Shown here in pieces: positions 16,442 to 28,738 of a stretch of 64,000 nt of DNA. The translations under genes and the position numbers were made by a program. Location of the stretch: NCBI RefSeq assembly GCF_011045215.1, contig NZ_CP049201.1. One strand, written 5' to 3'. Position 1 is the stretch's first letter. Each line of letters starts with the position of its first letter. Under the pieces are notes generated by a model. The model was not told where the DNA came from. It searched no databases and saw nothing but the letters and a program-made list of their open reading frames with translations. This stretch comes from Escherichia coli. Lineage in GTDB: Bacteria > Pseudomonadota > Gammaproteobacteria > Enterobacterales > Enterobacteriaceae.

Positions 16442-17385
16442 ATGACAAACTTCACGACCAGCACGCCGCATGACGCATTATTTAAATCTTTTCTCATGCA
16501 CCCTGACACCGCGCGGGATTTTATGGAGATCCACTTACCCAAAGATTTACGTGAACTGTGCGATCTCGACAGCTTAAAACTGGAATCCGCCAGCTTTGTC
16601 GATGAAAAATTGCGGGCGCTACACTCCGATATTCTGTGGTCGGTAAAGACCCGGGAAGGCGATGGCTATATCTATGTGGTGATTGAACATCAGAGCCGTG
16701 AGGATATTCATATGGCCTTTCGCCTGATGCGCTATTCCATGGCAGTGATGCAGCGCCATATAGAGCATGATAAACGCGGTTGCTACCGCTGGTCATCCCG
16801 ATGCTGTTTTATCACGGTAGCCGTAGTCCTTATCCCTGGTCCCTGTGCTGGCTGGACGAATTTGCCGACCCGACTACTGCACGGAAAGTTTATACTGCAG
16901 CGTTCCCGCTGGTGGATGTCACTGTCGTGCCAGACGACGAGATTGTGCAGCACCGCAGAGTCGCCCTGTTGGAGTTGATCCAAAAGCATATTCGCCAGCG
17001 CGATCTGATGGGGCTTATCGATCAACTGGTAATATTACTGGTTACAGAGTGTGCTAATGACAGCCAGATAACTGCGCTGTTAAATTACATTTTACTGACT
17101 GGCGATGAAGCGCGTTTTAATGAGTTTATCAGTGAACTTACCCGTCGAATGCCACAACAAAGGGAGCGAATAATGACGATTGCAGAGCGAATTCATAATG
17201 ATGGATGGCTGTTAGGGATGGAAAAGGGGAAAGAAGAAGGGGAACAACGCCTCCTTAGATTGCTTTTGCAGAACGGTGCGGATCCTGAATGGATACAACG
17301 ATATACTGGACTTTCGGCAGAGCAAATGCAGGCATTAGAGCAACCCTTGCCTGAAAGCAAGCGCGATCCATGGATCGAGTACTAA
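16442..17385 (+). pseudogene. rpnD: Rpn (YhgA-like, transposase_31 / PD-(D/E)XK) recombination-promoting nuclease, interrupted by a frameshift
   Basis: Two overlapping ORFs (16442..16978 and 16780..17385) in different frames together span an Rpn-family protein; the N-terminal part ([19 protein letters not shown]...YVVIEHQSR) continues in the second frame ([27 protein letters not shown]) after a frame change near 16775-16800. Confidence 0.7.
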
Positions 17386-17473: not shown

Positions 17474-17510
17474 TTGTAAGCCGGATAAGGCGTTCACGCC
17501 GCATCCGGTA
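17474..17510. repeat. REP (repetitive extragenic palindromic) element
   Basis: gccggataaggcgttcacgccgcatccgg-type palindrome. Confidence 0.8.
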
Positions 17511-17626
17511 TGAACAAAGCACACTTTGCCTAAGCCATGCTGGAACGTGGCGATGCCCCTGCAAAGATAAAACGAGTCACAGGCGATTCGTGAGAGGAAA
17601 TCAGGGGCCTCGCCACTAATTCGAAT

Positions 17627-19039
17627 TCATTCCATTGCCTGATACACGGCCTCGCCAATTTGCTTCAGTGCTTCGCGATAGGTTTCGCTGAGCGGCAAAG
17701 CGCAGTTGATACGTAGACAATTACGGTATTTGCCGGAAGCCGAGAAAATCGAGCCTGCCGCCACCTGGATTTTCATGCGGTACAGCTGCCGCGCGACGCA
17801 GACCATATCGACCTGTTCAGGCAATTCTATCCACAGTAAAAATCCGCCTTTCGGGCGCGTAATACAGATTTCGCAGGGAAAATATTCCCGTATCCAGCAG
17901 GTATAAAGCGCCAAATTGCGCTGATAGATCTGCCGCATCCGCCGGATATGGCGATGATAGTGACCTTCCAGCACAAACGTTGCCGCCGCCATTTGCGTGG
18001 ACGGTACATTAAAGCTGCTGATGGCGTATTTCATATGCAGCAGTTTATCGTGATAACGCCCCGGTGCGACCCAACCCACGCGCAGGCCTGGTGCAATACT
18101 TTTACTGAACGAGCTGCACAACAGCACTCGCCCGTCGATATCCCAGGAATGAATGGTCCGCGGGCGCGGATACTCCGTTGCCAGTTCGCCGTAGACATCA
18201 TCTTCAAAAATCACAATATCATGACGCTGAGCGAGAGAGAGAACGGCCCGTTTGCGCGCGTCCGGCATAATAAATCCCAGCGGATTATTACAGTTTGGCA
18301 CCAGAATGATGCCTTTAATCGGCCACTGTTCCAGCGCCAGTTCCAGCGCTTCAACGCTGATGCCTGTTTCTGGATCGGTTGGGATTTCAATCACTTTCAC
18401 GCCCATGCCGCGCAGCATCTGCATCGAACCGTAATAACAGGGGGATTCGACCGCGACAATATCGCCCGGTTTACACACCGCCATTAACGCCAGCGACATC
18501 GAGTTATGGCAGCCGCTGGTGATAATGATGTCATCGGCGGTGACCACCGAGCCGCTGTCGAGCATCAGGCGGGCAATCTGCTCTCGCAACACTCGCTGAC
18601 CGGCTAACAAGTCATAACCGAGAACGGTTTGTAGATTATGCTGCACCACCCGGCTTAGCTCCCGCCAGAGTGGTTTCAGGCTGGGCGTTTCGACATCCGG
18701 CGTGCTTTTGCTTAACGGAACAATGGAACTGTCGCTATGCGCCTCCAGCATATCCAGTACCTGATCCCACTGAGTAATTTCCACCGGGCGCTGCACCGGA
18801 CGCGTCATCGGCGGCACTGGCGGTTGGGCTTTCCGTTGTGCGACAAAATAACCCGAACGCGGCTGCGGAGTGATGAGCTTCATCGTCTCCAGCGTCTGGT
18901 ACGCCTGCTGCACGGTGCTGATGCTGACGCCGTGCTCCTGACTTAAGCTGCGCACCGACGGCAATTTCTCCCCGTGACGATACAGCCCTTGCTCAATCCG
19001 CTCGGCAAGTAGAGTCGCCAGATGTTGATAACGCGTCAT
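17627..19039 (-). CDS. yjiR: MocR-type regulator (GntR-family HTH fused to PLP-dependent aminotransferase-like domain)
   Basis: 470-aa ORF; N-terminal wHTH, C-terminal fold-type I aminotransferase-like region; synteny. Confidence 0.85.
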   Translation of the reverse strand: MTRYQHLATLLAERIEQGLYRHGEKLPSVRSLSQEHGVSISTVQQAYQTLETMKLITPQPRSGYFVAQRKAQPPVPPMTRPVQRPVEITQWDQVLDMLEAHSDSSIVPLSKSTPDVETPSLKPLWRELSRVVQHNLQTVLGYDLLAGQRVLREQIARLMLDSGSVVTADDIIITSGCHNSMSLALMAVCKPGDIVAVESPCYYGSMQMLRGMGVKVIEIPTDPETGISVEALELALEQWPIKGIILVPNCNNPLGFIMPDARKRAVLSLAQRHDIVIFEDDVYGELATEYPRPRTIHSWDIDGRVLLCSSFSKSIAPGLRVGWVAPGRYHDKLLHMKYAISSFNVPSTQMAAATFVLEGHYHRHIRRMRQIYQRNLALYTCWIREYFPCEICITRPKGGFLLWIELPEQVDMVCVARQLYRMKIQVAAGSIFSASGKYRNCLRINCALPLSETYREALKQIGEAVYQAME

Positions 19040-19215
19040 GCTGTATTCCTTATTTGGACCATACAGAAAGAAAAACCGGTACAGATGAGGCTAAAAAACC
19101 GGATGCAGATTCTGTTTTAACCTGTCTGTATGTTAAATAAAACTAATATTTGCATCTGTATTGTGAACTGCCAGAAGGCGGATGATGAAGCCTCTGAAAG
19201 ATGAGGAGGCAGCAG

Positions 19216-19380
19216 ATGGAATTTTACGAAAACAAAGCCAAAACGCCGTTTATCAGACTTGTGCAACTCTGGCAGGCGGTGAGGCGTTGGCGGCGGCAAA
19301 TGCAGACCCGACGAGTGTTACAGCAGATGAGTGATGAGCGGTTGAGGGATATTGGGTTACGCAGGGAGGATGTGGAGTGA
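19216..19380 (+). CDS. yjiS: DUF1127-family small protein
   Basis: 54-aa ORF below the cutoff of the supplied track; I translated it by hand (MEFYENKAKTPFIRLVQLWQAVRRWRRQMQTRRVLQQMSDERLRDIGLRREDVE); RBS-like aggagg upstream. Confidence 0.7.
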   Translation: MEFYENKAKTPFIRLVQLWQAVRRWRRQMQTRRVLQQMSDERLRDIGLRREDVE

Positions 19381-19477
19381 TGGGGTATGTTCGTCGCGGA
19401 TAAACCGGATTTCGCTATAACCTTCACAAGGAAGTGGTTATTATTGCGTCATTATTGCTTCACGGAAGGACGCCAGG

Positions 19478-21571
19478 ATGAAAGCCACAGAGGCTCGCCT
19501 ACTCGATTTTTTAAAACGTTCGCAGCAGTTTGTTATTCCCATTTATCAACGCACTTATTCATGGACCGGGCAACAATGTCGGCAACTTTGGGACGACATC
19601 ATTCGTGCCGGAAAGCGTGACGATATATCAGCACATTTTATCGGTTCGGTTGTTTATATAGAGCAGGGATTGTATCAGGTTTCTGGTATTTCTCCGTTGC
19701 TGGTCATTGATGGTCAGCAGCGGCTGACGACCGCAATGTTGCTGATTGAGGCTTTATCGCGCCATCTTGGCGAAGACGAAGTTTTTGATGGCTTTTCGGC
19801 AATGAAATTGCGTAATTATTATTTGCTCAATCCTTATGAGTCCGGCGAGAAAGGTTTTAAATTACTGCTGACCGAGACTGATAAAGACAGTTTACTGGCG
19901 TTAATAAAACAAAGACCAATGCCAGAAAACTATTCCCATCGAATAATGGAAAACTTTACTTTCTTTGATGAACAAATTGCCAAACTCGGTGATGACTTGA
20001 TCCCCTTATGTCGTGGGTTAGCAAAGTTATTAATTGTCGATGTGGCGCTTAATCGTGGTCAGGATAATCCGCAACTGATTTTTGAAAGTATGAACTCTAC
20101 CGGTAAGGCGTTAAGTCAGGCCGATCTGGTGCGCAATTTTATTCTGATGGGCCTCGAACCAGAGCATCAAACCCGGTTGTATGAAGATCACTGGCGTCCA
20201 ATGGAAGTCGCTTTTGGTCAGCAAGGTTACAGCGAATATTTTGACAGTTTTATGCGTCATTATCTGACGGTAAAAACGGGGGAGATCCCTCGGACAGATG
20301 AAGTCTATGAGGCATTTAAACTCCATGCCCGCAGCCAGCGTGTTGCTGAAAAAGGCGTAGATCGGCTGGTTGAAGATATTCACATCTACGCGGAGTATTA
20401 CTGTGCAATGGCATTGGGAAAAGAAAGTGACAAATCGCTTGCTACGGCTTTTCAGGATTTGCGCGAGTTAAAGGTCGATGTGGCGTATCCTTTCTTACTG
20501 GCGCTTTATCATGACTATAAAAATGACGATTTGTCTCACGAAGATTTCCTGAGCATAATTCGTTTAATTGAATCTTATGTTTTCCGCCGTGCAGTATGTG
20601 CAATTCCGACAAATTCTTTGAACAAGACATTTGCCACTTTTTATAAAGTTATTAATAAAGAAAATTATCTGGAAAGTATTCAGGTACATTTTTTGAATCT
20701 ACCTTCATATCGTCGTTTCCCCAACGATGATGAATTTAAACGGGAATTAAAAGTTCGCGATCTCTATAACTTCCGCAGTCGCAGCTACTGGTTACGACGA
20801 CTGGAAAACGATAAACGCAGAGAGCGCGTAGAAGAGTTTACTATTGAGCATATTATGCCGCAGAACGAAAATTTGTCGGCTAAATGGCGTGAAGAGCTGG
20901 GAAGTGACTGGCAACGCATTCATAAAGAATTATTGCATACGTTGGGGGATCTCACTTTAACGCGCTATAACTCCCGCTACAGTGACAGACCTTTCGCGGA
21001 AAAACGCGATATTGAAGACGGCTTTAAACATAGCCCGCTCTATTTGAATATCGGTCTTGGACAGTGCGAAAAATGGGATGAAGCCGCCATTCATGCCCGA
21101 GCCGATCGTCTGGCCGATCTCGCGGTTCAGGTCTGGCAAGCGCCTTCTCTTCCTGAAGAGGTTTTGGCTGTTTATCGGGGACAGCCTGAAAACAAAACCA
21201 GTTACAGCCTGAGTGATTATCCTTTTCTTGCTGATGGTTCGCATAGCCGGGTGTTATTCGATCATCTTCGCGATGAAGTTATGCGCCTGGACGCAGGGAT
21301 CACGCAGGAAGTATTGAAGCTATATATTGCGTTTAAAGCTGAAACGAATTTTGTTGATGTTGTGCCGCAAAAAAGCCGACTGCGATTGTCGCTTAATATG
21401 CAGTTTCATGAACTGGTCGATCCGAAAGGTATTGCCAAAGATGTGACAAATGTTGGGCGCTGGGGCAATGGCGATGTGGAAATTGGTTTCAGTGACCTCG
21501 CACAACTTCCTTACGTTATGGGATTAATTCGTCAGGCATTTGAAAAACAGATGGAGAGCGCGTTGGTCTAA
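19478..21571 (+). CDS. DUF262 (ParB-like NTPase) / DUF1524 (His-Me finger) fusion nuclease, GmrSD-family-like; candidate type IV (modification-dependent) restriction enzyme
   Basis: 697-aa ORF. N-terminal motifs IPIYQRTYSW, LVIDGQQRLTT and FESMNSTGKALSQADLVRNF are DUF262 hallmarks; C-terminal half contains EHIMPQ and GDLTLT (DUF1524-like), followed by a ~170-aa tail with no motif I recognise. Occupies the position of mcrBC in the K-12 immigration control region. Confidence 0.75.
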   Translation: MKATEARLLDFLKRSQQFVIPIYQRTYSWTGQQCRQLWDDIIRAGKRDDISAHFIGSVVYIEQGLYQVSGISPLLVIDGQQRLTTAMLLIEALSRHLGEDEVFDGFSAMKLRNYYLLNPYESGEKGFKLLLTETDKDSLLALIKQRPMPENYSHRIMENFTFFDEQIAKLGDDLIPLCRGLAKLLIVDVALNRGQDNPQLIFESMNSTGKALSQADLVRNFILMGLEPEHQTRLYEDHWRPMEVAFGQQGYSEYFDSFMRHYLTVKTGEIPRTDEVYEAFKLHARSQRVAEKGVDRLVEDIHIYAEYYCAMALGKESDKSLATAFQDLRELKVDVAYPFLLALYHDYKNDDLSHEDFLSIIRLIESYVFRRAVCAIPTNSLNKTFATFYKVINKENYLESIQVHFLNLPSYRRFPNDDEFKRELKVRDLYNFRSRSYWLRRLENDKRRERVEEFTIEHIMPQNENLSAKWREELGSDWQRIHKELLHTLGDLTLTRYNSRYSDRPFAEKRDIEDGFKHSPLYLNIGLGQCEKWDEAAIHARADRLADLAVQVWQAPSLPEEVLAVYRGQPENKTSYSLSDYPFLADGSHSRVLFDHLRDEVMRLDAGITQEVLKLYIAFKAETNFVDVVPQKSRLRLSLNMQFHELVDPKGIAKDVTNVGRWGNGDVEIGFSDLAQLPYVMGLIRQAFEKQMESALV

Positions 21572-21585
21572 CACGGCGAATAATA

Positions 21586-21609
21586 CCCGGTAGCACTGGT
21601 GCTACCGGG
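21586..21609. terminator. Perfect palindrome (cccggtagcac/gtgctaccggg) between the convergent DUF262 gene and symE; likely bidirectional terminator
   Basis: Read directly in the sequence. Confidence 0.55.
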
Positions 21610-21617
21610 TCAATGTA

Positions 21618-21959
21618 TCAGGCAACTTTCTGTTTACCCGCAATCACTCCAATAAACTCCTGCACCTGCTTTTGTTTACGTGCCGACAGTTTGCACACCT
21701 GGCGTAGCGACTGCATCAGTTCGCTCTCTTCGGCGGTGGGTGGTTGGGCGGTGAGGACAATACAGCCTTCCATCACTTTGACATCTACCGCCGTGCCGGT
21801 GGCAAAACCGGCGGCTTCCAGCCACTGACCTTTCAGGGTGATGGCGGGAATACGGCTGTAATCCGGGTAGCGACTCGCATAACTCACGGTTAATTGACGG
21901 TTATTTGCCGGGGAGACTTCTGCTTCGAACGGTTGTGCAATAGAATGCGTGTCAGTCAT
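21618..21959 (-). CDS. symE: SOS-induced toxin-like protein SymE (type I TA system toxin)
   Basis: ORF 21618..22016 trimmed to [34 protein letters not shown]... (113 aa), matching my memory of SymE. Confidence 0.85.
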
Positions 21960-22030
21960 AACTGCTATTCTCCGATAATAGTGATTGTGATTAGCGGTGC
22001 GGGTGTGTTGGCGCACATCCGCACCGCGCT
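21954..22030 (+). ncRNA. symR: Probable SymR antisense sRNA overlapping the symE translation start (coordinates approximate)
   Basis: From established knowledge SymR is cis-encoded opposite the symE 5' end; a stem-loop (gcggtgcgg...ccgcaccgc) at ~21994-22030 on the plus strand could be its 3' structure. Ends not determined. Confidence 0.35.
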
Positions 22031-22034
22031 AAAT

Positions 22035-22054
22035 ACCTGGATATATCATCAGTA
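22035..22054. promoter_or_regulatory. LexA box (acCTGgatatatcatCAGta) in the symE promoter region
   Basis: CTG-N10-CAG with AT-rich centre, about 80 bp upstream of the symE start. Confidence 0.7.
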
Positions 22055-22186
22055 AATACAGGGAAAGTCCAGCTAAAAATAGAATAAAATAGGCAGTTTC
22101 TGGAATAATTTAAATATATTTGCGTGAGTTATGATTGGCATGAAATAATAAAAAGCGCACCGGAAAGGTGCGCCAGAAAATAATGA

Positions 22187-23563
22187 TCAGGATTTTTTAC
22201 GCGAGGCTTTTTTACCCCCGTTGGCTGCGCGTTCAGCTTTGATTTTTTCCAGCAACGCGGCGGCGCTGTTTTCTCCGCTGATTAAATCCGGGTTTTCGGC
22301 CCGCCACTGGGCGGTGAGTTCTCCACGGAACGCTTTTGCCAGGATGGATTGCGTCAGGTTGTTGACGCGGGCTAAGGCGTTGTTGACCTGTTTTTCTATG
22401 GTGTCGGCGTAGGCGAAGAGCTGCTCGACGCGGCGAACGATTTCGGCTTGTTCATAGAGTGAATATAAAGGTACCATTATTGATGAAATTTTAGAAATAC
22501 TTAATGTATAGAGTCCTGCTCCAGATGTGGCGCGATTAATAATTTCTGCCTTACCTTGTGCAGACATTAAATAGAAAAGGAGAAACCTTGGAGAAATTAT
22601 TTCTCTATTTGCCCTAACTTTTATTAAATGGTTTTGATGTACGCACTCTTTGATTTCATCACGCCATAGTGCAGCTCGACCAATTTGATCAAGACTACCA
22701 TTGCCTTCAACTATTAATAAATCTTCATACTCTAATGATACACGATCCAGTTCTTTTTGTTGAACTCCGATTTCGGAAATATCTTCTAATCTCAATTCAT
22801 TTTCATAGACATTTGCCACACGCAAATATGGAACTTGCAACTCAAAATTATTACGTTTCGAGTTTTTTGTAAGACCGCCAATCACTTGGGCTATTTGACT
22901 AATATTGAAATAATTAATTGGGGAGATATTTGTAAGTTTCCCACTTACAGCCGCAGCCAATACCGCCTGACGAAAACGTTTCATGATTTGTGGGATTTTC
23001 TCAAGGCGTGCTTTGGTGCTGTCTACTTGCGCCAGCAGCGTATCGAGTTTTTCCGCAATTATTTTTTGCTCGGCAAGTGGTGGCAACGGAAGTAGGGTAT
23101 CTTGAAGTGTCCTGGAAGAAAGATGCTTCACCGTAACCGAGGACGTATTTGCATTGATTGCGGATAAATATCCTGGTAAGGCATGATAGAAAAATCTTTT
23201 ATTGTATTTGTCTTCCTGAACTTCGATTTTACATACTCGTTGATTTAACAGAGCGGGCTCCGAGCGCCATATAGTTGTATTAAAATCACCATCCATTCCC
23301 ACGATTAAGTCTTCGGGATATACCCAATATCCCTCAGGAATTTGCCCCGAGTAATAAGTCGATGTATTACCTTTAAGAACATCACGAATTCTAATTAATG
23401 GTACACCTTCTTTACGATTATTAAATTCTGCCGACTTAAAAGCAAAACCGTTTGTGATGTTTGCTACGGAATCCATTGGAATACGTAACCAGCTCTCATG
23501 GATTGAAAGTAACCCATTGATATTTTGCTCAATTAATTCTTTTGATGTTGAGTTGAAACTCAT
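22187..23563 (-). CDS. hsdS: Type I restriction-modification specificity subunit HsdS (type IA frame, divergent TRDs)
   Basis: 458-aa ORF; central conserved region (LAEQKIIAEKLDTLLAQVDSTKAR) and C-terminal region (EQAEIVRRVEQLFAYADTIEKQVNNALARVNNLTQSILAKAFRGELTAQWRAENPDL) match my memory of EcoKI HsdS, whereas the two variable domains are AT-rich and different. Confidence 0.85.
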   Translation of the reverse strand: MSFNSTSKELIEQNINGLLSIHESWLRIPMDSVANITNGFAFKSAEFNNRKEGVPLIRIRDVLKGNTSTYYSGQIPEGYWVYPEDLIVGMDGDFNTTIWRSEPALLNQRVCKIEVQEDKYNKRFFYHALPGYLSAINANTSSVTVKHLSSRTLQDTLLPLPPLAEQKIIAEKLDTLLAQVDSTKARLEKIPQIMKRFRQAVLAAAVSGKLTNISPINYFNISQIAQVIGGLTKNSKRNNFELQVPYLRVANVYENELRLEDISEIGVQQKELDRVSLEYEDLLIVEGNGSLDQIGRAALWRDEIKECVHQNHLIKVRANREIISPRFLLFYLMSAQGKAEIINRATSGAGLYTLSISKISSIMVPLYSLYEQAEIVRRVEQLFAYADTIEKQVNNALARVNNLTQSILAKAFRGELTAQWRAENPDLISGENSAAALLEKIKAERAANGGKKASRKKS

Positions 23564-25149
23564 TCCTTCACCCCACCAAACGCTTCTTCCAGCAACTGAC
23601 GCTGCGCATCCGCCTCATCGCTCGCCCCCAGTTCACGCATCAGCGCATCCAGTTCAGACAGCGCCTGCACCAGCTCGCCCATCGCTTCTGCCGCTAATAC
23701 ATCCGGCTCCGGCAGGCTGTCGGCATCAATACTGTCTTTATCTTTCAGCCAGGAGATATCCAGCGAATCGGATTTCGCGGTGCGGATCCACTCGCGGCTG
23801 AACTTACGCCAGCGGCTGGTAGCCAGGTGCTGGTCGGTGTTTTTGTTCTCTTCGCTGTCGGCAACTTCCGTCTCTTCGGCGTTAAAACTCCATTCCCCTT
23901 CACTACGCGGGCTTAAACCGTGCGGGTCTTCGCCATACACGCGCTCAAACGGCTGCAAATACTCGTCGGTAAACGGCGTGCGTTTACCAAAGCTCGGCAT
24001 ATTGGTCCGCAGGTCGTACACCCACACGTCATCGGTGCAGTTCTTATCCTGATGCGGGTTCGCCACTGTACCTTTGGTAAAGAACAGCACGTTGGTCTTC
24101 ACGCCCTGCGCGTAAAAAATACCGGTCGGCAGACGTAGAATGGTGTGCAGATGACACTTATCCATCAGGTCACGACGAATGTCGGTGCCTTTGCCGCCTT
24201 CAAACAGCACGTTATCCGGCACCACCACCGCCGCACGACCGCCGGGATGTAGCGTTTCGATAATATGCTGCATAAAGCACAACTGTTTGTTGCTGGTCGG
24301 GTGAACAAAGGTGCGGGTAATGTTGGTGCCTGCGGCGCTGCCAAACGGCGGGTTAGTGGCGACAATATGCGCCTTCGGCAGGTTTTCGCCGTCGCTACCC
24401 AGGGTGTTGCCCAGACGGATTGCGCCGCCGTGGTCGAGGTTGCCTTCAATATCGTGCAGCAGGCAGTTCATCAGCGCCAGACGACGGGTGCCGGGCACCA
24501 GTTCGAGGCCGATAAACGCGCGGTGGATCTGGAAATCCTGCGTGTCGCCATCAAGGTCGTCCAGATCGTTAGTCTGCGACTTAACGTAGCGGTCGGCTTC
24601 AATCAAAAAGCCCGCCGTACCTGCTGCCGGGTCCTGCACCACTTCGCGCGGCTGCGGTTTCAGCAGATGAATAATGGTTTTAATCAGCGGACGCGGGGTG
24701 AAGTACTGGCCCGCGCCCGACTTGGTTTCGTTCGCGTTCTTCTGCAACAGCCCTTCGTACATATCGCCGAAGTCATCGCGCGACTTACCGTGCGCACCGT
24801 TGTACCAGTCCAGTGAATCCATATTGCTGACCAGTTCGGTCAACTGTTTCGGCTGGGTAATGGTGGTGTTGACGTTCTGGAACACCGCCTGCACCAGCTT
24901 TTGATTGTCGGCGCCCAGATGCACCAGCAGGTTACGGTAGAACTGCAACTGCTCCTGGCCGATGCGGGATTTCAGGTCATCCCAGCGGTAGCCTTCCGGC
25001 AGGTATTCCGCTTCCTGCCCGGTCTCTTTACACATTTTCAAAAACAGCAGCGAGGCGAGTTCATTGACGTAGTTTTGATAGGAAACGCCGCCATCGCGCA
25101 GGTTGTCGCACAGCTTCCACAGCTTGGCGACCAGATCGTTATTGTTCAT
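23560..25149 (-). CDS. hsdM: Type I R-M DNA methyltransferase subunit HsdM
   Basis: 529-aa ORF, N6-adenine methyltransferase with NPPF motif (ATNPPFGSAAG); 4-bp overlap with hsdS. Confidence 0.9.
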   Translation of the reverse strand: MNNNDLVAKLWKLCDNLRDGGVSYQNYVNELASLLFLKMCKETGQEAEYLPEGYRWDDLKSRIGQEQLQFYRNLLVHLGADNQKLVQAVFQNVNTTITQPKQLTELVSNMDSLDWYNGAHGKSRDDFGDMYEGLLQKNANETKSGAGQYFTPRPLIKTIIHLLKPQPREVVQDPAAGTAGFLIEADRYVKSQTNDLDDLDGDTQDFQIHRAFIGLELVPGTRRLALMNCLLHDIEGNLDHGGAIRLGNTLGSDGENLPKAHIVATNPPFGSAAGTNITRTFVHPTSNKQLCFMQHIIETLHPGGRAAVVVPDNVLFEGGKGTDIRRDLMDKCHLHTILRLPTGIFYAQGVKTNVLFFTKGTVANPHQDKNCTDDVWVYDLRTNMPSFGKRTPFTDEYLQPFERVYGEDPHGLSPRSEGEWSFNAEETEVADSEENKNTDQHLATSRWRKFSREWIRTAKSDSLDISWLKDKDSIDADSLPEPDVLAAEAMGELVQALSELDALMRELGASDEADAQRQLLEEAFGGVKE

Positions 25150-25225
25150 TGTGAGTTCCGTAAATTAAGCAGCGGCCCAAATTTATCGGGCCGCAGAAGA
25201 AGAAATTGCCGGGAATGATACCGTG

Positions 25226-28200
25226 TCAGGCCAGCTCGTCCCAGATGTAATCGCTGAATTTGCCCAGCAGGGTATCGAGATTATCGTCAAAGGTTCTTTG
25301 CAGCATCGCCTTCCCGCCGCGACGGTGGAAGTTGCCGGTTTTGAACACATCGTCGTCGAGCACCACTTTCTCTTTCAGCGCCTGCGCTAAACGATCGAGC
25401 CAGCTTAATTGCTCGCTGCTCCAGTCGTTTTCGCCCTTAATGCGCGTCAGCGCGTGATCGACACGTTCCTCAAACGGTTTCAGCGCATCTCCCACCGCAG
25501 CGCGGCGAATATGACCGATCAGCCGGGCGGCGATATCTTCATTGCGCGTCTCTTTCCACGCTTTGCGCAGGGAAGATTCCTCAAAGTGCTGGCGGTCAAA
25601 CCACTCCTGTAGCTCGACCAGCCCTTTACGGGTGAGATCGCGCGGGCGATTGATCACCGCCTGCAATGCCGGCTGTGCGTTCGGGGAACGTTGCACCAGC
25701 GAGTCAAAGGCTTCGAGGAAATCCTGCGGTGTGTCGTAATCACCGTACAGCGATTTTACGCTCACCACTTCATCGTCGATATCGAGGAAGATCGGCGCAT
25801 CATTCAGGTTATTGATGTCGGTTTTCAACTTTTCCAGACGGGCGATAAAGCCAGGCAGTTTGTTAAAGACCTCGGCGCTCCAGTGCGGCCCTTTTTCCCG
25901 CAGGCGCGAGGCGAAGCCGTTAAAGTTCACCCCCGCCGCATCCTGGCATAGCTCATCCAGACGACGCACCTGTTTATCTATCGTTTCGCTGCGGTCACGG
26001 TTAAACGTGGCCAGGCCGACGATGCGCTGGAGCTTCGCCACCAGTTGTTCATGGCTGTGCTCGGCAAAGCTGCGGCCGTCCGCTTCGGTGATTTTATAGG
26101 TTTCTGAATCGGTAATTTCGTTGACCAGCGTTTGCAGTTCCACCTTCGGACGCACCACCACCGGACGCATGGTGTCGACGCTCTCCAGCGTGCTGTAGAT
26201 ATCGACACAGTCGAAAATCTTAAAGCTGGTTTTATTCACGTCCGGGCATAAGCGTGTGGCGCGGCCTTTCATCTGCTCGTACAGAATACGGCTGCGTACT
26301 TTACGCAGGAACACGATGTTACAGATCGACGGAATATCGACGCCGGTCGTCAGCAGGTCGACGGTTACCACGATATTGGGCAGCCGCTCTTTATTGAAGC
26401 GGGTGATCATGGTCTGCACTTTGCGCGCGTCTTTATCGGCATCACCGGTGATCTTGATGATCGCGTCGTGCTCCAGTTGCGGATACTTTTTCTTGAACGC
26501 GGTACGCAGCTCTTCCACCACCATATCGGCATGAGCATTGGTGACGCAGAAGACCAGCGTTTTTTGCGACCCGGTCGGATCAAGGTAATTGGTGAGTTCA
26601 TTACAAACGGCGCGGTTAAACGCCGGGATCACCAGACCACGGTTAAAGTCGGCGACCTCAAAATCCTGATCGTCTTCCAGGGTGTCATTGATCACTTCTC
26701 CCTGCGGGCTGATGCGCTCTACCTGTTCGCCTTTGGAGAGATAAACCCCTTCCTGGGCGTTGCGGGTGGTGATTTGAATCGGCGGATCCTGGTCGATCAG
26801 AAAACCGTCGATAACCGCGGTACGGTAGGTATAACGGTAAACCGGCTCGCCGAAAATCTGCACCGTATGCAGCGCCGGGGTGGCGGTGAGGGCGATTTTT
26901 ACCGCATCGAAGTGATCGAGAATGCGACGATAGGCAGAAACGTAATCCAACTGACTGCGGAACTGCAGTTCGCCTTCGGTCTGCTCTTTATCGAGAATGT
27001 AGCCACGATGCGCTTCGTCAACAACGATACAGTCATAACGGGCCACCGGCATTGGTTCATCTGATTGCAGGGTGCGTTTCACCAGCGACTGTACGGTGGC
27101 AACGTGAATTTTGGTGCTGTCTTCCGGGAATTTATCCGTCAGCCCTTTAATGTCGAAAATGCTGTTGAAGGTGTCGCCGTTAATACGCGTATCTTCAAAC
27201 GCGCCCAGCGCCTGCTCGCCAAGAGAACGGCGATCCACAAGGAAGAGAATGCGTTTAAAACGCTGAGACTGGATCAGGCGGAACATCATGGCAATTGCGG
27301 TGCGGGTTTTACCAGTACCGGTCGCCATCGCCAGCAGGATCTCTTGTTGACCCTTGACGATTGCCTTTTCAACCGCGCGGACAGCATCTTCCTGATAATA
27401 ACGCAGGCCCAGCTCGCTCATGCCAGGGTTGTCGGCAAACCACTGATTCTGTTTTTGCGGTTCGCTGCCGAGCATTTCCAGCAGCTCTTCCGGGCGATGC
27501 CACTCGGGTAAGGCTTTCGACATATTGCGGGTATCACGCACGTCGCGATACCAGATGCCGCTTTTAGTCTTCATCGCTGCGCGATATTCGCGCCCGTTTG
27601 TGGAGTAGCAGAAGGGGATTTTAAACCGTTGTTGGCCGCTGGTGTCCTGCCAGCTGGTTTCATACTCCGGCACCGCTTCATGCACTTCATCCGGTGAGTA
27701 ATGCTCAAGCAAGGTTTCCCGCAGGAAGCCATTATCGAAACATTTACTGTAGCGATACGACTCATTGAGCTTGGCGGGAACGTCGATATTTTTACGTTTC
27801 GCCTCTACCACCGCGATGGGTTTGAGGCCGACAAACAGCACATAATCCGCAAAGCCCTGATTACCCATTTCATCTTTCCCGGTCGGCCATTCGGCAATGG
27901 CTTTATTGACGCCGGGTTCCGGGCGCGCGCCTTTGGAGAAACGCAGGGTTTTGCTGTCGGCCTGCCAGCCCGCTTTACGCAGTTGGGCATCAATCAGGAA
28001 GCGGCTCTCTTCTTCGCTGAGGTTGAGCGTGCGCTTGATGGCCTGATCGGTAATTTCTTTGTGGTAAGCCTTACGTTCCTGTTCTGTCTGTTTGGCCAGC
28101 TCCGCGTTTTTCTCGGCGAGCTGTGCTTCAAGCGCCGCAAGGCGGGCCTGGGTTTGCGCTTCGGTTTCCTGCTGTTTACCTTCCAGAATGGCGATATAGC

Positions 28201-28738
28201 CGTTCAGGGCAACCAGCTTTTGCTGCTGCGCTTCGACTTCTGCCTGACTCTGCGCTTTTTCTCGCACCTGCTGTTCAAGCTGTTGTTTTAGCGTCAGCAC
28301 TTCCTGGTGATAGAGGTTTTCACCACGTTCCGGCAACACAAACACCGGCACCGAGAAGTCATAATCTTTAGTGACCAGACGGTAGTACCAGACAGCCAGG
28401 CGAAACCCGAGTCGCAGGCACATCTGGGCATCGTCGAGATCGTTATGATATTCGTGCACCGCCTGGTTACCAATGCGGCGTAATTTGTGGAATACAGAGA
28501 GAATGTTGTCATCAACGAAGGCGATTTTGCCGAGTTCGCGCAGGAGATCGTGTTGATTCTCACAAGGGGGGATGTTGAGTAACAGACCAAGATGTTTCGC
28601 TGTGGCTTCGCCAAACATACGCATTTTAATCAGCGTCGTGTTGGGATCATCCGGGTAGTTATTCTCCGCCGCACAGGCGATGGCATAAGTGAAGTCGTTG
28701 ACGCCCTTCAGGAATTCAAAATTGGATTTATTCATCAT
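25226..28738 (-). CDS. hsdR: Type I R-M restriction endonuclease/helicase subunit HsdR
   Basis: 1170-aa ORF with SF2 helicase motifs (LLAMATGTGKTRTA Walker A, DEAH-like VVDEAHR) preceded by an N-terminal nuclease region. Confidence 0.9.
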   Translation of the reverse strand: MMNKSNFEFLKGVNDFTYAIACAAENNYPDDPNTTLIKMRMFGEATAKHLGLLLNIPPCENQHDLLRELGKIAFVDDNILSVFHKLRRIGNQAVHEYHNDLDDAQMCLRLGFRLAVWYYRLVTKDYDFSVPVFVLPERGENLYHQEVLTLKQQLEQQVREKAQSQAEVEAQQQKLVALNGYIAILEGKQQETEAQTQARLAALEAQLAEKNAELAKQTEQERKAYHKEITDQAIKRTLNLSEEESRFLIDAQLRKAGWQADSKTLRFSKGARPEPGVNKAIAEWPTGKDEMGNQGFADYVLFVGLKPIAVVEAKRKNIDVPAKLNESYRYSKCFDNGFLRETLLEHYSPDEVHEAVPEYETSWQDTSGQQRFKIPFCYSTNGREYRAAMKTKSGIWYRDVRDTRNMSKALPEWHRPEELLEMLGSEPQKQNQWFADNPGMSELGLRYYQEDAVRAVEKAIVKGQQEILLAMATGTGKTRTAIAMMFRLIQSQRFKRILFLVDRRSLGEQALGAFEDTRINGDTFNSIFDIKGLTDKFPEDSTKIHVATVQSLVKRTLQSDEPMPVARYDCIVVDEAHRGYILDKEQTEGELQFRSQLDYVSAYRRILDHFDAVKIALTATPALHTVQIFGEPVYRYTYRTAVIDGFLIDQDPPIQITTRNAQEGVYLSKGEQVERISPQGEVINDTLEDDQDFEVADFNRGLVIPAFNRAVCNELTNYLDPTGSQKTLVFCVTNAHADMVVEELRTAFKKKYPQLEHDAIIKITGDADKDARKVQTMITRFNKERLPNIVVTVDLLTTGVDIPSICNIVFLRKVRSRILYEQMKGRATRLCPDVNKTSFKIFDCVDIYSTLESVDTMRPVVVRPKVELQTLVNEITDSETYKITEADGRSFAEHSHEQLVAKLQRIVGLATFNRDRSETIDKQVRRLDELCQDAAGVNFNGFASRLREKGPHWSAEVFNKLPGFIARLEKLKTDINNLNDAPIFLDIDDEVVSVKSLYGDYDTPQDFLEAFDSLVQRSPNAQPALQAVINRPRDLTRKGLVELQEWFDRQHFEESSLRKAWKETRNEDIAARLIGHIRRAAVGDALKPFEERVDHALTRIKGENDWSSEQLSWLDRLAQALKEKVVLDDDVFKTGNFHRRGGKAMLQRTFDDNLDTLLGKFSDYIWDELA

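Follow-up and report, generated by a model that had tools for sequence, protein, structure and literature searches.

[quoted passage not shown] Within the window (the whole stretch of 64,000 nucleotides analysed here), blastn homology to the K-12 locus stops at 19388, 8 bp past yjiS, and restarts at 21622, at the 3' end of symE. Hence, a 2233 bp cassette takes the place of 7579 bp in K-12, where yjiT, yjiV', mcrC and mcrB are found. It carries an uninterrupted ORF of 697 codons (ATG start, no internal stops), as originally proposed, and the gene order is yjiR-yjiS-nuclease gene-symE-hsdS-hsdM-hsdR-mrr-yjiA. These breakpoints, together with the K-12 annotation, place the gene between yjiS and symE in the McrBC slot, in line with the original prediction, and its GC content (44.0%, against 51.7% and 50.8% in the 5-kb flanks) agrees with the claim that it is more AT-rich than its surroundings. 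The further claim that McrBC has been replaced holds in that the slot is occupied; the word replacement is K-12-centric, however, as out of 5426 complete E. coli genomes 1480 (27%) carry the nuclease gene and 597 carry K-12-type mcrB. The features of the locus are collected in Table 1.

Table 1 Features of the ICR locus, with positions in the window and the basis of each assignment.
Feature	Position	Strand	Basis or remark
Variable ICR cassette	19389..21621		2233 bp, 44% GC; blastn against the K-12 locus
yjiS (DUF1127), left conserved flank	19216..19380	+	syntenic-record annotation; K-12 homology
Putative Shine-Dalgarno GGAAGG	19464..19469	+	8 nt 5' of the ATG, by direct reading
GmrSD-family (DUF262 + DUF1524) nuclease gene with C-terminal DUF5655	19478..21571	+	uninterrupted ORF, 697 aa
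GmrSD_N / DUF262 ParB-like NTPase domain, residues 9-222	19502..20143	+	PF03235, E 4.1e-34
Alpha-helical linker, residues 223-414	20144..20719	+	helices in AF2 model
GmrSD_C / DUF1524 His-Me finger nuclease domain, residues 415-547	20720..21118	+	PF07510, E 1e-24
Codon GAT (D491), private A>G at 20948	20948..20950	+	structural-Asn position of the E/D-H-N-N motif
DUF5655 domain, residues 591-690	21248..21547	+	PF18899, E 2.6e-13
Perfect 11-bp inverted repeat ACCCGGTAGCA / TGCTACCGGGT, loop CTGG	21585..21610		direct reading
symE, right conserved flank	21618..21959	-	syntenic-record annotation; K-12 homology
symR, sRNA antisense to symE	21954-22030	+	Rfam RF01809, 90.9 bits
Type I R-M block hsdS/hsdM/hsdR	22187..28738	-	neighbours of the nuclease gene in the defence island
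hsdS, Type I R-M	22187-23563	-	same defence island
hsdM, Type I R-M	23560-25149	-	same defence island
hsdR, Type I R-M	25226-28738	-	same defence island

Profile-HMM searches matched both DUF262 and DUF1524, which bears out the two-domain GmrSD-type architecture put forward for this protein. The DUF262 motifs that had been named are present, with IPIYQRTYSW starting at residue 20, VIDGQQRLTT at 76 and FESMNSTGKALSQADLVRNF at 202; the elements PxYQR (21-25, with YQR at 23-25), DGQQR (78-82; codons at 19709-19723 of the plus strand) and FESMN (202-206) are invariant across 24 homologues. As for the DUF1524 signature, EHIMPQ was found at 457, where E457-H458-I-M-P461 forms the (D/E/H)HxxP motif, while GDLTLT at 490 proved to be a private deviation from the family motif. 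E457-H458 is encoded at 20846-20851 and N498 at 20969-20971, and the domain aligns with the EH...GN...N motif of DndI (PDB 9JFL) and SspE (PDB 6JIV). A full-length AlphaFold model (24 close homologues) has a mean pLDDT of 62; only the helical linker reaches 75-94, and the active-site regions fall below 50, too low to judge how H458, D491 and N498 are arranged. In PADLOC, the protein matches the Orf5/DndI-type model PDLC02693 (E 1.6e-222; residues 10-553 cover positions 1-542 of a 543-position profile), the HEC-06 model PDLC04155 (E 7.2e-66; residues 8-555 cover positions 12-560 of a 562-position profile) and mREase_IV (E 5e-27). The first two span nearly the whole core and support the designation as a candidate defence nuclease.

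The family itself is already known. The window protein is identical at 685 of 697 residues (98%) to APECO1_2080 of E. coli APEC O1, which He et al. 2015 (PMC4437046) describe as a GmrSD homologue with DUF262 and DUF1524 motifs, 24% identical to Eco94GmrSD and located in an ICR without McrBC. It is the same gene in the same place, beside symE-hsdSMR-mrr-yjiA, while the window allele has D491 for N491 plus 11 further substitutions, and the upstream start of APECO1_2080, whose published length is 733 aa, is not open in the window. An EcoSal review of 2025 (PMC12707154) restates the ICR GmrSD homologue and puts the frequency of GmrSD in the ICR at 12%. In a 2025 Nat Commun survey (PMC12373910), CLS_001 is given as the largest enterobacterial GmrSD cluster, with D782_3934 and WP_021557501 listed as members and a representative reportedly tested against phage. 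D782_3934 is 74% identical to the window nuclease. The number of WP_021557501 falls between the RefSeq identifiers of the yjiR and symE proteins of O157:H16 Santai, and we infer that it is the former full-length record of the gene. The nuclease family is of the CLS_001 / APECO1_2080 type, i.e. the commonest enterobacterial GmrSD type, and in E. coli it is about 2.5 times as common as K-12 McrBC. A GmrSD homologue in the ICR instead of McrBC is hence a published arrangement, and a common one that roughly one in four E. coli genomes carries; new here are the extra C-terminal DUF5655 domain and a private mutation in the nuclease motif. No statement of the family's substrate was found in the accessible text of this literature.

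The window protein and the representative of its E. coli cluster share 98% identity. In 1358 of the 1480 carriers at least 80% of the gene is retained in one aligned place. Compared with the allele at locus L004, there are 25 synonymous and 9 non-synonymous differences, which together with this retention indicates purifying selection. At 70% identity or above, the family of ~700-aa proteins extends from Enterobacteria to Kiritimatiella.

By analogy with characterised relatives, the protein is most likely a nuclease of the His-Me-finger type that is regulated by NTP and restricts phage DNA. The reading we favour, with some reservation, is that the gene belongs to an ICR allele family of single-chain GmrSD-type defence nucleases, gated by NTP through DUF262, most probably directed against modified phage DNA and with the tail as an accessory. 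As in Eco94GmrSD, BrxU, HEC-06, TgvAB, DndI and SspE, the DUF262 domain would bind and hydrolyse NTP and so gate the nuclease, and the DUF1524 domain would nick or cut invading DNA. The target would most probably be phage DNA with modified bases that evade the neighbouring Type I system of the EcoKI family. With such a target the protein would be a Type IV enzyme, filling the role of McrBC with a different fold. McrBC, the K-12 occupant of this chromosomal position with its Type IV modification-dependent restriction role, is a two-gene system of unrelated proteins, an AAA+ GTPase and a PD-(D/E)xK nuclease.

Comparison with the relatives places the protein more closely. Eco94GmrSD (EcoCT596 GmrSD), the Type IV prototype, is likewise a single chain of DUF262 and DUF1524 and cleaves hmC and glc-hmC DNA in a reaction that depends on Mg/Mn and is stimulated by NTP; it differs in its length of 629 aa, its prophage location beside tail-fibre genes and its inhibition by T4 IPI*. 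HEC-06 is also a single-gene GmrSD-like defence protein and has the DGQQR and E-H-x-x-P motifs in common with the window nuclease; mutants in DGQQR and EH abolish its defence (Payne et al. 2024, bioRxiv 10.1101/2024.01.29.577857). A HEC-06 homologue is reported to be a modification-dependent antiphage nuclease from plaque assays of T-even phages against unmodified T4-GT7. HEC-06 models comprise ~560 positions, ending where the tail of the window protein starts, and the match is weaker than that to the Orf5 model, so that the two are better seen as sister groups than as one subfamily. Furthermore, HEC-06 was originally found embedded in Hma systems, whereas the neighbours of the window gene are yjiS and symE-hsdSMR. 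TgvAB (V. cholerae VPI-2) and other GmrSD-like systems embedded in Type I R-M are encoded within Type I R-M operons or next to them, and are active against T-even phages. Homologues of the window protein share this embedding, whereas TgvAB consists of two proteins and the window gene is single, convergent with symE and outside the hsd operon. BrxU (a GmrSD protein embedded in BREX, PDB 7P9K) and SspE belong to the same two-domain family as NTP-regulated nucleases in defence islands. In the PDB, neither a single-sequence search (E up to 1) nor a profile search (E up to 0.01) returned a BrxU chain, and no BREX genes are present in the window; the match to SspE, which requires SspABCD, covers residues 10-94 only (E 1.6e-5). 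The nearest solved structure is DndI of Salmonella enterica Cerro 87 (9JFL; E 1.3e-16, residues 10-556), which shares the DUF262 NTPase and DUF1524 nickase, with P-x-Y-Q-R, DGQQR, EH, GN and N aligned. DndI is co-transcribed with dndFGH and acts with dndBCDE, whereas the window gene has no dnd neighbours. It cuts unmodified DNA, is restrained by host phosphorothioate on self DNA and is toxic without it. As DndI is thus not modification-dependent, the family name alone leaves the trigger unfixed. This counts against the favoured reading, as do the low identity to Eco94GmrSD and the lack of a sequence match to BrxU.

The C-terminal tail, originally described as lacking any assignable motif, is in fact a DUF5655 domain, preceded by a variable linker (residues about 555-590). 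Structure prediction of the tail gave a YdhG/YjbR-like alpha/beta sandwich with the alpha-beta4-beta-alpha fold at pLDDT 94. In the homologue alignment, conservation of the tail equals that of the catalytic core, and DUF5655 is elsewhere fused to HsdS subunits and present in the PADLOC candidate PDC-S18. This conservation and recurrence suggest that the tail would serve as an accessory DNA- or partner-binding module. Clearly distinct tail architectures are few among the best 150 matches (HsdS fusions, PDC-S18-type proteins and tandem copies). Tail relatives of 100-600 aa were considered as new architectures and rejected, with 56 of the 150 best matches showing GmrSD-core similarity and many others being fragment-sized. 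A literature search on DUF5655 function returned a single irrelevant paper and one on PDC-S18 returned none; the available text of He et al. 2015 and of the PMC12373910 survey makes no mention of the tail.

The surroundings of the homologues support a role in defence and also bear on what the nuclease responds to. In Kiritimatiella, Salinivibrio and Halopseudomonas, relatives with at least 70% identity form part of hsdM-hsdS-X-hsdR operons whose genes overlap in their codons, while others at this level are found downstream of hsdR (Oceanimonas) or adjoining BrxL (a metagenomic contig). Such translational coupling to Type I genes would fit a DndI/SspE-like logic, in which the nuclease acts on DNA by itself, or is triggered by way of it, depending on a host-made mark (phosphorothioate, possibly the m6A of the adjacent Type I system) rather than a phage modification. 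The best PADLOC family, Orf5, is DndI, as is the best solved-structure match, and Y23 of PxYQR aligns with the residue that senses phosphorothioate in DndI, Y25; PxYQR is, however, a general DUF262 motif and not specific to phosphorothioate readers. Neither dnd nor ssp genes are present in the window, as judged from an annotated genome region that lacks both and is collinear across 63,863 of the 64,000 bases, and none occurs within 6-8 kb of any of the eight homologues with examined flanks. Dnd is moreover rare (2% at hotspot 37), in contrast to the 27% of E. coli genomes that carry the nuclease gene. A mark made by the Type I system sits poorly with loci L003 and L004, where the gene is intact though only a fragment remains of the neighbouring hsd genes, and with homologues adjoining BREX or Mks-like genes with no Type I system within 6 kb. 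We therefore regard a host-made trigger as distinctly unlikely. It is also conceivable, if unlikely, that the tail is a module which moves between restriction systems and provides specificity or coupling, reading a DNA feature or bringing the nuclease to Type I R-M complexes or to their inhibitors. The ~700-aa family would then work together with Type I restriction instead of being a Type IV enzyme in its own right, and N491D would be a naturally occurring change that weakens a toxic effector. A housekeeping or mobile-element role, for a ParB-like/HNH protein that happens to lie in the variable region, would agree with the NCBIfam search, which gave the protein no family; this is hardly credible, as the window locus and each of 9 independent contexts of homologues is a defence island or a defence operon, BrxU, HEC-06, TgvAB and DndI are antiphage by experiment, and the cassette holds no linked integrase, transposase or replication gene.

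The favoured reading of an antiphage GmrSD-type nuclease has to accommodate the D491 substitution, which departs from an invariant motif residue and is counted against it for the window copy. Residue 491 is Asn in 23 of 23 aligned homologues, in all 149 homologues with a recognisable motif and in loci L001, L003, L004 and L006, so that the window copy alone reads GDLTLT in place of GNLTLT. The 33-mer with G at 20948 was found, in two backgrounds, in 0 of 5426 genomes, compared to 859 for the A 33-mer used as positive control. This change is the sole within-gene difference from NZ_OZ197100.1, and one of 2 differences in about 6.5 kb. The E/D-H-N-N catalytic set is therefore incomplete, with E457, H458 and N498 present and the first Asn replaced. 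This set is required for activity and not for homology, and the motif Asn has a crucial structural role (Machnicka et al. 2015). Hence, 98% identity to N491 alleles makes GmrSD membership by descent sure, with the catalytic competence of the D491 allele in doubt. Equating D491 with Eco94GmrSD N522, which is dead when mutated, was rejected, as N522 is not the canonical motif Asn (Machnicka et al.). The tested DndI residue N541, important there, aligns with N498 and not with residue 491. In colicin E7 the equivalent N560D substitution reportedly leaves the HNH loop disordered and activity greatly reduced. GmrSD enzymes are often toxic, such that attenuating mutations would be favoured. In view of the invariance of N491, including in every E. 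coli allele examined, the window copy could be an attenuated or dead allele of a defence-nuclease family. Asp for Asn is a conservative replacement, however, E457, the general base H458 and N498 as second Asn are intact with the rest of the ORF unchanged, and a sequencing error in the window source could also explain a single base. On balance we consider such an allele unlikely as the full account, while the motif position indicates that D491 may reduce nuclease activity. The restriction phenotype of the source strain is accordingly unsafe to predict from genotype.

Outside the coding sequence, a scan of the 97-nt gap between yjiS and the nuclease gene for a promoter of its own scored no higher than shuffles, with no convincing candidate. 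The inverted repeat lies within the cassette and separates the convergent nuclease gene and symE. A T-run terminator scan, itself no better than shuffles, did not call it; from its sequence and position, the repeat is likely a terminator shared by both genes. In every genome inspected, RefSeq currently splits this intact gene into a pseudogene fragment and a truncated protein, and the nuclease could thus be missed in defence-system censuses.

Profile searches matched both the GmrSD_N and GmrSD_C families in the translated ORF, a result the original prediction had treated as decisive, and every motif it quoted is present in the encoded protein (residues 20, 76, 202, 457 and 490). The gene is also more AT-rich than its neighbours, as had been claimed, with 44.0% GC compared to 51.7% and 50.8% in the 5-kb flanks. 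The observation itself is confirmed.

Features of the nuclease locus in the window
Feature	Position	Strand	Details
Nuclease ORF	19478..21571	+	697 aa, ATG start, uninterrupted
GmrSD_N (PF03235, formerly DUF262)	residues 9-222		Pfam E 4.1e-34
GmrSD_C (PF07510, formerly DUF1524)	residues 415-547		Pfam E 1e-24
DUF5655 (PF18899)	residues 591-690		Pfam E 2.6e-13
Plausible Shine-Dalgarno	8 nt upstream of nuclease ATG		GGAAGG
Perfect 11-bp inverted repeat	21585-21610		between nuclease gene and convergent symE
SymR antisense sRNA	21954-22030	+	Rfam RF01809, 90.9 bits; overlaps symE 5' end, directly right of cassette

The gene order, taken from the syntenic annotation of NZ_OZ197100.1 and from K-12, is yjiR, yjiS, the nuclease gene, symE, hsdS, hsdM, hsdR, mrr and yjiA. 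Homology to K-12 stops at 19388, 8 bp past yjiS, and restarts at 21622, in the 3' end of symE; hence, the 2233 bp cassette occupies the position of the 7579 bp yjiT-yjiV'-mcrC-mcrB segment of K-12. A promoter scan gave no convincing candidate for a separate nuclease promoter. The ~6.5 kb from 17500 to 24000 (yjiR, yjiS, nuclease gene, symE, hsdS and the start of hsdM) contains 2 differences from NZ_OZ197100.1, compared to 1-4% divergence in the flanks, suggesting that this part of the immigration control region (ICR) was shared recently through recombination. The window (25211-25222) lacks a ~125-134 bp element, apparently an ERIC/IRU-like repeat, that is present between hsdR and hsdM in K-12 (locus L002, 15112-15245) and NZ_OZ197100.1; it falls where the hsdM promoter is expected. 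A frameshift divides an Rpn-family (rpnD-like) gene at 16442-17385 into overlapping ORFs of 178 and 201 aa, as it also does in the annotations of K-12 and NZ_OZ197100.1, while yjiR (17627-19039) is intact in the window and annotated as frameshifted in NZ_OZ197100.1.

The original interpretation is supported, yet the presence of a GmrSD homologue at the ICR is common and has been published before. He et al. (2015, PMC4437046, section 17) reported that APECO1_2080, a divergent homologue of GmrSD, bears the motifs of DUF262 and DUF1524 and lies in an ICR that has symE, hsdSMR, mrr and a GTPase but no McrBC. The APEC O1 locus carries the nuclease gene in the same position, its product identical to the window protein at 685 of 697 residues. 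A 2025 EcoSal Plus review (PMC12707154) likewise notes E. coli in which a GmrSD homologue takes the place of the McrBC locus, with GmrSD accounting for 12% of ICRs. In a 2025 Nature Communications study (PMC12373910), enterobacterial GmrSD proteins were clustered, the largest cluster (CLS_001) including D782_3934 and WP_021557501; representatives of 15 systems were synthesised and tested on T-even phages, and five were active beyond three named ones. D782_3934 (our homologue P0033) is 74% identical to the window protein. The number of WP_021557501 lies between those that RefSeq now assigns to the neighbouring yjiR and symE products of O157:H16 Santai, and we infer that it is the former full-length record of the nuclease gene. 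The points of interest that remain are the DUF5655 module, which recurs on HsdS, the tight embedding of near-identical homologues in Type I operons of different phyla, a private motif mutation and the RefSeq mis-annotation.

The nuclease gene was found in 1480 of 5426 complete E. coli genomes, O157:H7 strains among them. For 1358 of these carriers at least 80% of the gene aligned in one place, nearly always chromosomal and with 95-99% identity. K-12-type mcrB was found in 597 of the 5426, making the K-12 arrangement the minority state. The claim that McrBC has been replaced thus stands insofar as the gene fills the K-12 McrBC slot, while the wording is K-12-centred. A second E. coli ICR allele (P0021; 76% identical, 699 aa, 595 member sequences; loci L009-L011, 6001-8100) adjoins a different Type I family (781-aa HsdM, 1087-aa HsdR) near yjiA; an unannotated gene of 244 aa and one for a BrnA-like antitoxin come after it. 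RefSeq/PGAP splits the 697-codon ORF into a 'DUF262 partial pseudogene' (the first about 202-218 codons) and a 387-aa CDS starting at internal Met311. This was seen in all four genomes inspected (NZ_OZ197100.1, L001 9001-11094; GDSC2227PM and O157:H16 Santai, L003 and L004, both 3001-5094; APEC O1, L006 22614-24707), and because the ORF is uninterrupted in each, the split is likely an artefact. The paired feature names are the same under 24 of the 25 matches listed, with the 25th pairing 'DUF1524' with 'DUF262'. The mis-annotation looks systematic, and could hide the gene from censuses.

The best PADLOC model is 'Orf5' (PDLC02693; E 1.6e-222, residues 10-553), the former designation of DndI in the dnd cluster of Salmonella Cerro 87, followed by HEC-06 models (E 7e-66) and mREase_IV (E 5e-27); NCBIfam contains no family matching the protein. 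DndI is also the nearest solved structure by sequence (PDB 9JFL; E 3e-12 with a single sequence and 1.3e-16 with a profile, residues 10-556). In contrast, SspE matches only the first ~95 residues, and neither a single-sequence nor a profile search of the PDB retrieved BrxU. HEC-06 is an experimentally validated single-gene defence requiring the DGQQR and EH motifs (Payne et al. 2024, 10.1101/2024.01.29.577857), and a Bacteroides homologue is reported as a modification-dependent antiphage nuclease in T-even plaque assays with unmodified T4-GT7 as comparator. DndI, on the other hand, is a nickase active regardless of modification, which phosphorothioate releases from self DNA. The family name thus sets the proposed machinery, an NTP-gated His-Me finger nuclease, but not its trigger.

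A DndI-like trigger would fit both the best model and the nearest structure. However, no dnd, ssp or BREX genes occur in the window (63,863 of 64,000 bases are collinear with an annotated region devoid of them), and the nuclease gene remains intact in L003 and L004, where the adjacent hsd genes have shrunk to a fragment, arguing against dependence on an adjacent modification module. We therefore regard a DndI-like trigger as improbable. Surrounding genes were examined for eight homologues in other lineages, and a ninth context, strain FGI 57, adjoins hsdM according to a supplementary table in the 2025 study (PMC12373910). Kiritimatiella, Salinivibrio and Halopseudomonas homologues (at least 70% identity) lie within hsdM-hsdS-X-hsdR operons with overlapping stop/start codons, while that of Oceanimonas overlaps the end of the preceding hsdR and has a PDDEXK_4 gene after it (operon or hsdR-linked loci: L012 8001-10103, L015 6001-8103, L016 6001-8103 and L014 6001-8100). 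The Halopseudomonas homologue is accompanied by similarly embedded AAA_13, DUF4411 and Abi_C genes. P0021 and another homologue, P0024, have a different Type I family beside them within the ICR; further homologues adjoin BrxL (a metagenomic contig) or Mks-like genes (Nitrincola). This arrangement follows the 'embedded complementary defence' pattern known from BrxU, TgvAB and HEC-06. Given these contexts and the phenotypes of relatives, the best reading is a GmrSD-type Type IV nuclease that would attack modified DNA escaping Type I restriction, an explanation we consider reasonably probable. Homologues from across the Gammaproteobacteria and from Kiritimatiella retain the three domains in ~700 aa at ≥70% identity, and 25 synonymous against 9 non-synonymous differences separate the window gene from the O157:H16 allele (L004). 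Both findings indicate that the gene has spread horizontally under purifying selection.

The GDLTLT motif, originally presented as a family signature, is private to this copy. GNLTLT is found in 23 of 23 aligned homologues, the E. coli cluster representative, the four inspected alleles and all 149 homologues with a recognisable motif. The window codon is GAT (Asp491) rather than AAT (Asn), the responsible base, 20948, being the sole difference from NZ_OZ197100.1 inside the gene and one of the two within the ~6.5 kb. A 33-mer with the G, in two local sequence backgrounds, occurs in 0 of 5426 genomes, compared to 859 matches with the A; the G is possibly a sequencing error. Alignment to DndI and SspE places D491 at the first Asn of the E/D-H-N-N scheme, to which Machnicka et al. 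ascribe a structural role. E457, H458 and the second Asn, N498, are intact, the latter aligned with DndI N541, mutation of which abolishes defence. At the residue equivalent to 491, the colicin E7 N560D variant reportedly has a disordered HNH loop and strongly lowered activity. As GmrSD enzymes are often toxic (PMC12373910), an attenuating mutation is plausible, but substantial impairment of this copy by N491D appears rather unlikely. A 2-aa deletion at residues 450-451 (about 20825-20830; RRER--VEEF, where every other homologue has RKERVPVDEY), which lies five residues before the catalytic pair E457-H458, is common to all E. coli ICR alleles seen and not specific to the window.

The C-terminal tail, for which no motif had originally been assigned, is matched by DUF5655. 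Following a variable linker (residues ~555-590), residues 591-697 match the catalytic core in their degree of conservation. A tail-only search of 1.84 billion representatives returned 1469 relatives; 56 of the 150 best show GmrSD-core similarity, and many others are short enough to be fragments. Some Type I HsdS subunits (P0190, P0227) carry a C-terminal DUF5655 as well; the domain is further found on the PADLOC candidate PDC-S18, and PDC-S18-like proteins have it in tandem, two or three times over. Structure prediction, proposed originally for the tail, gave a confident AlphaFold model from 48 diverse sequences (pLDDT 94). The fold runs from a helix through a sheet of four strands and then a fifth strand to a long helix at the C-terminus. 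Foldseek placed YdhG/YjbR-like families on top with non-significant E-values. YjbR has been described as a 'double-wing' putative DNA-binding fold like MotA, and the tail may be an accessory DNA- or partner-binding module. Among the tail relatives P0190, P0227, P0251, P0137 and P0151, one protein carries DUF5655 after a viperin-like (radical-SAM) fragment.
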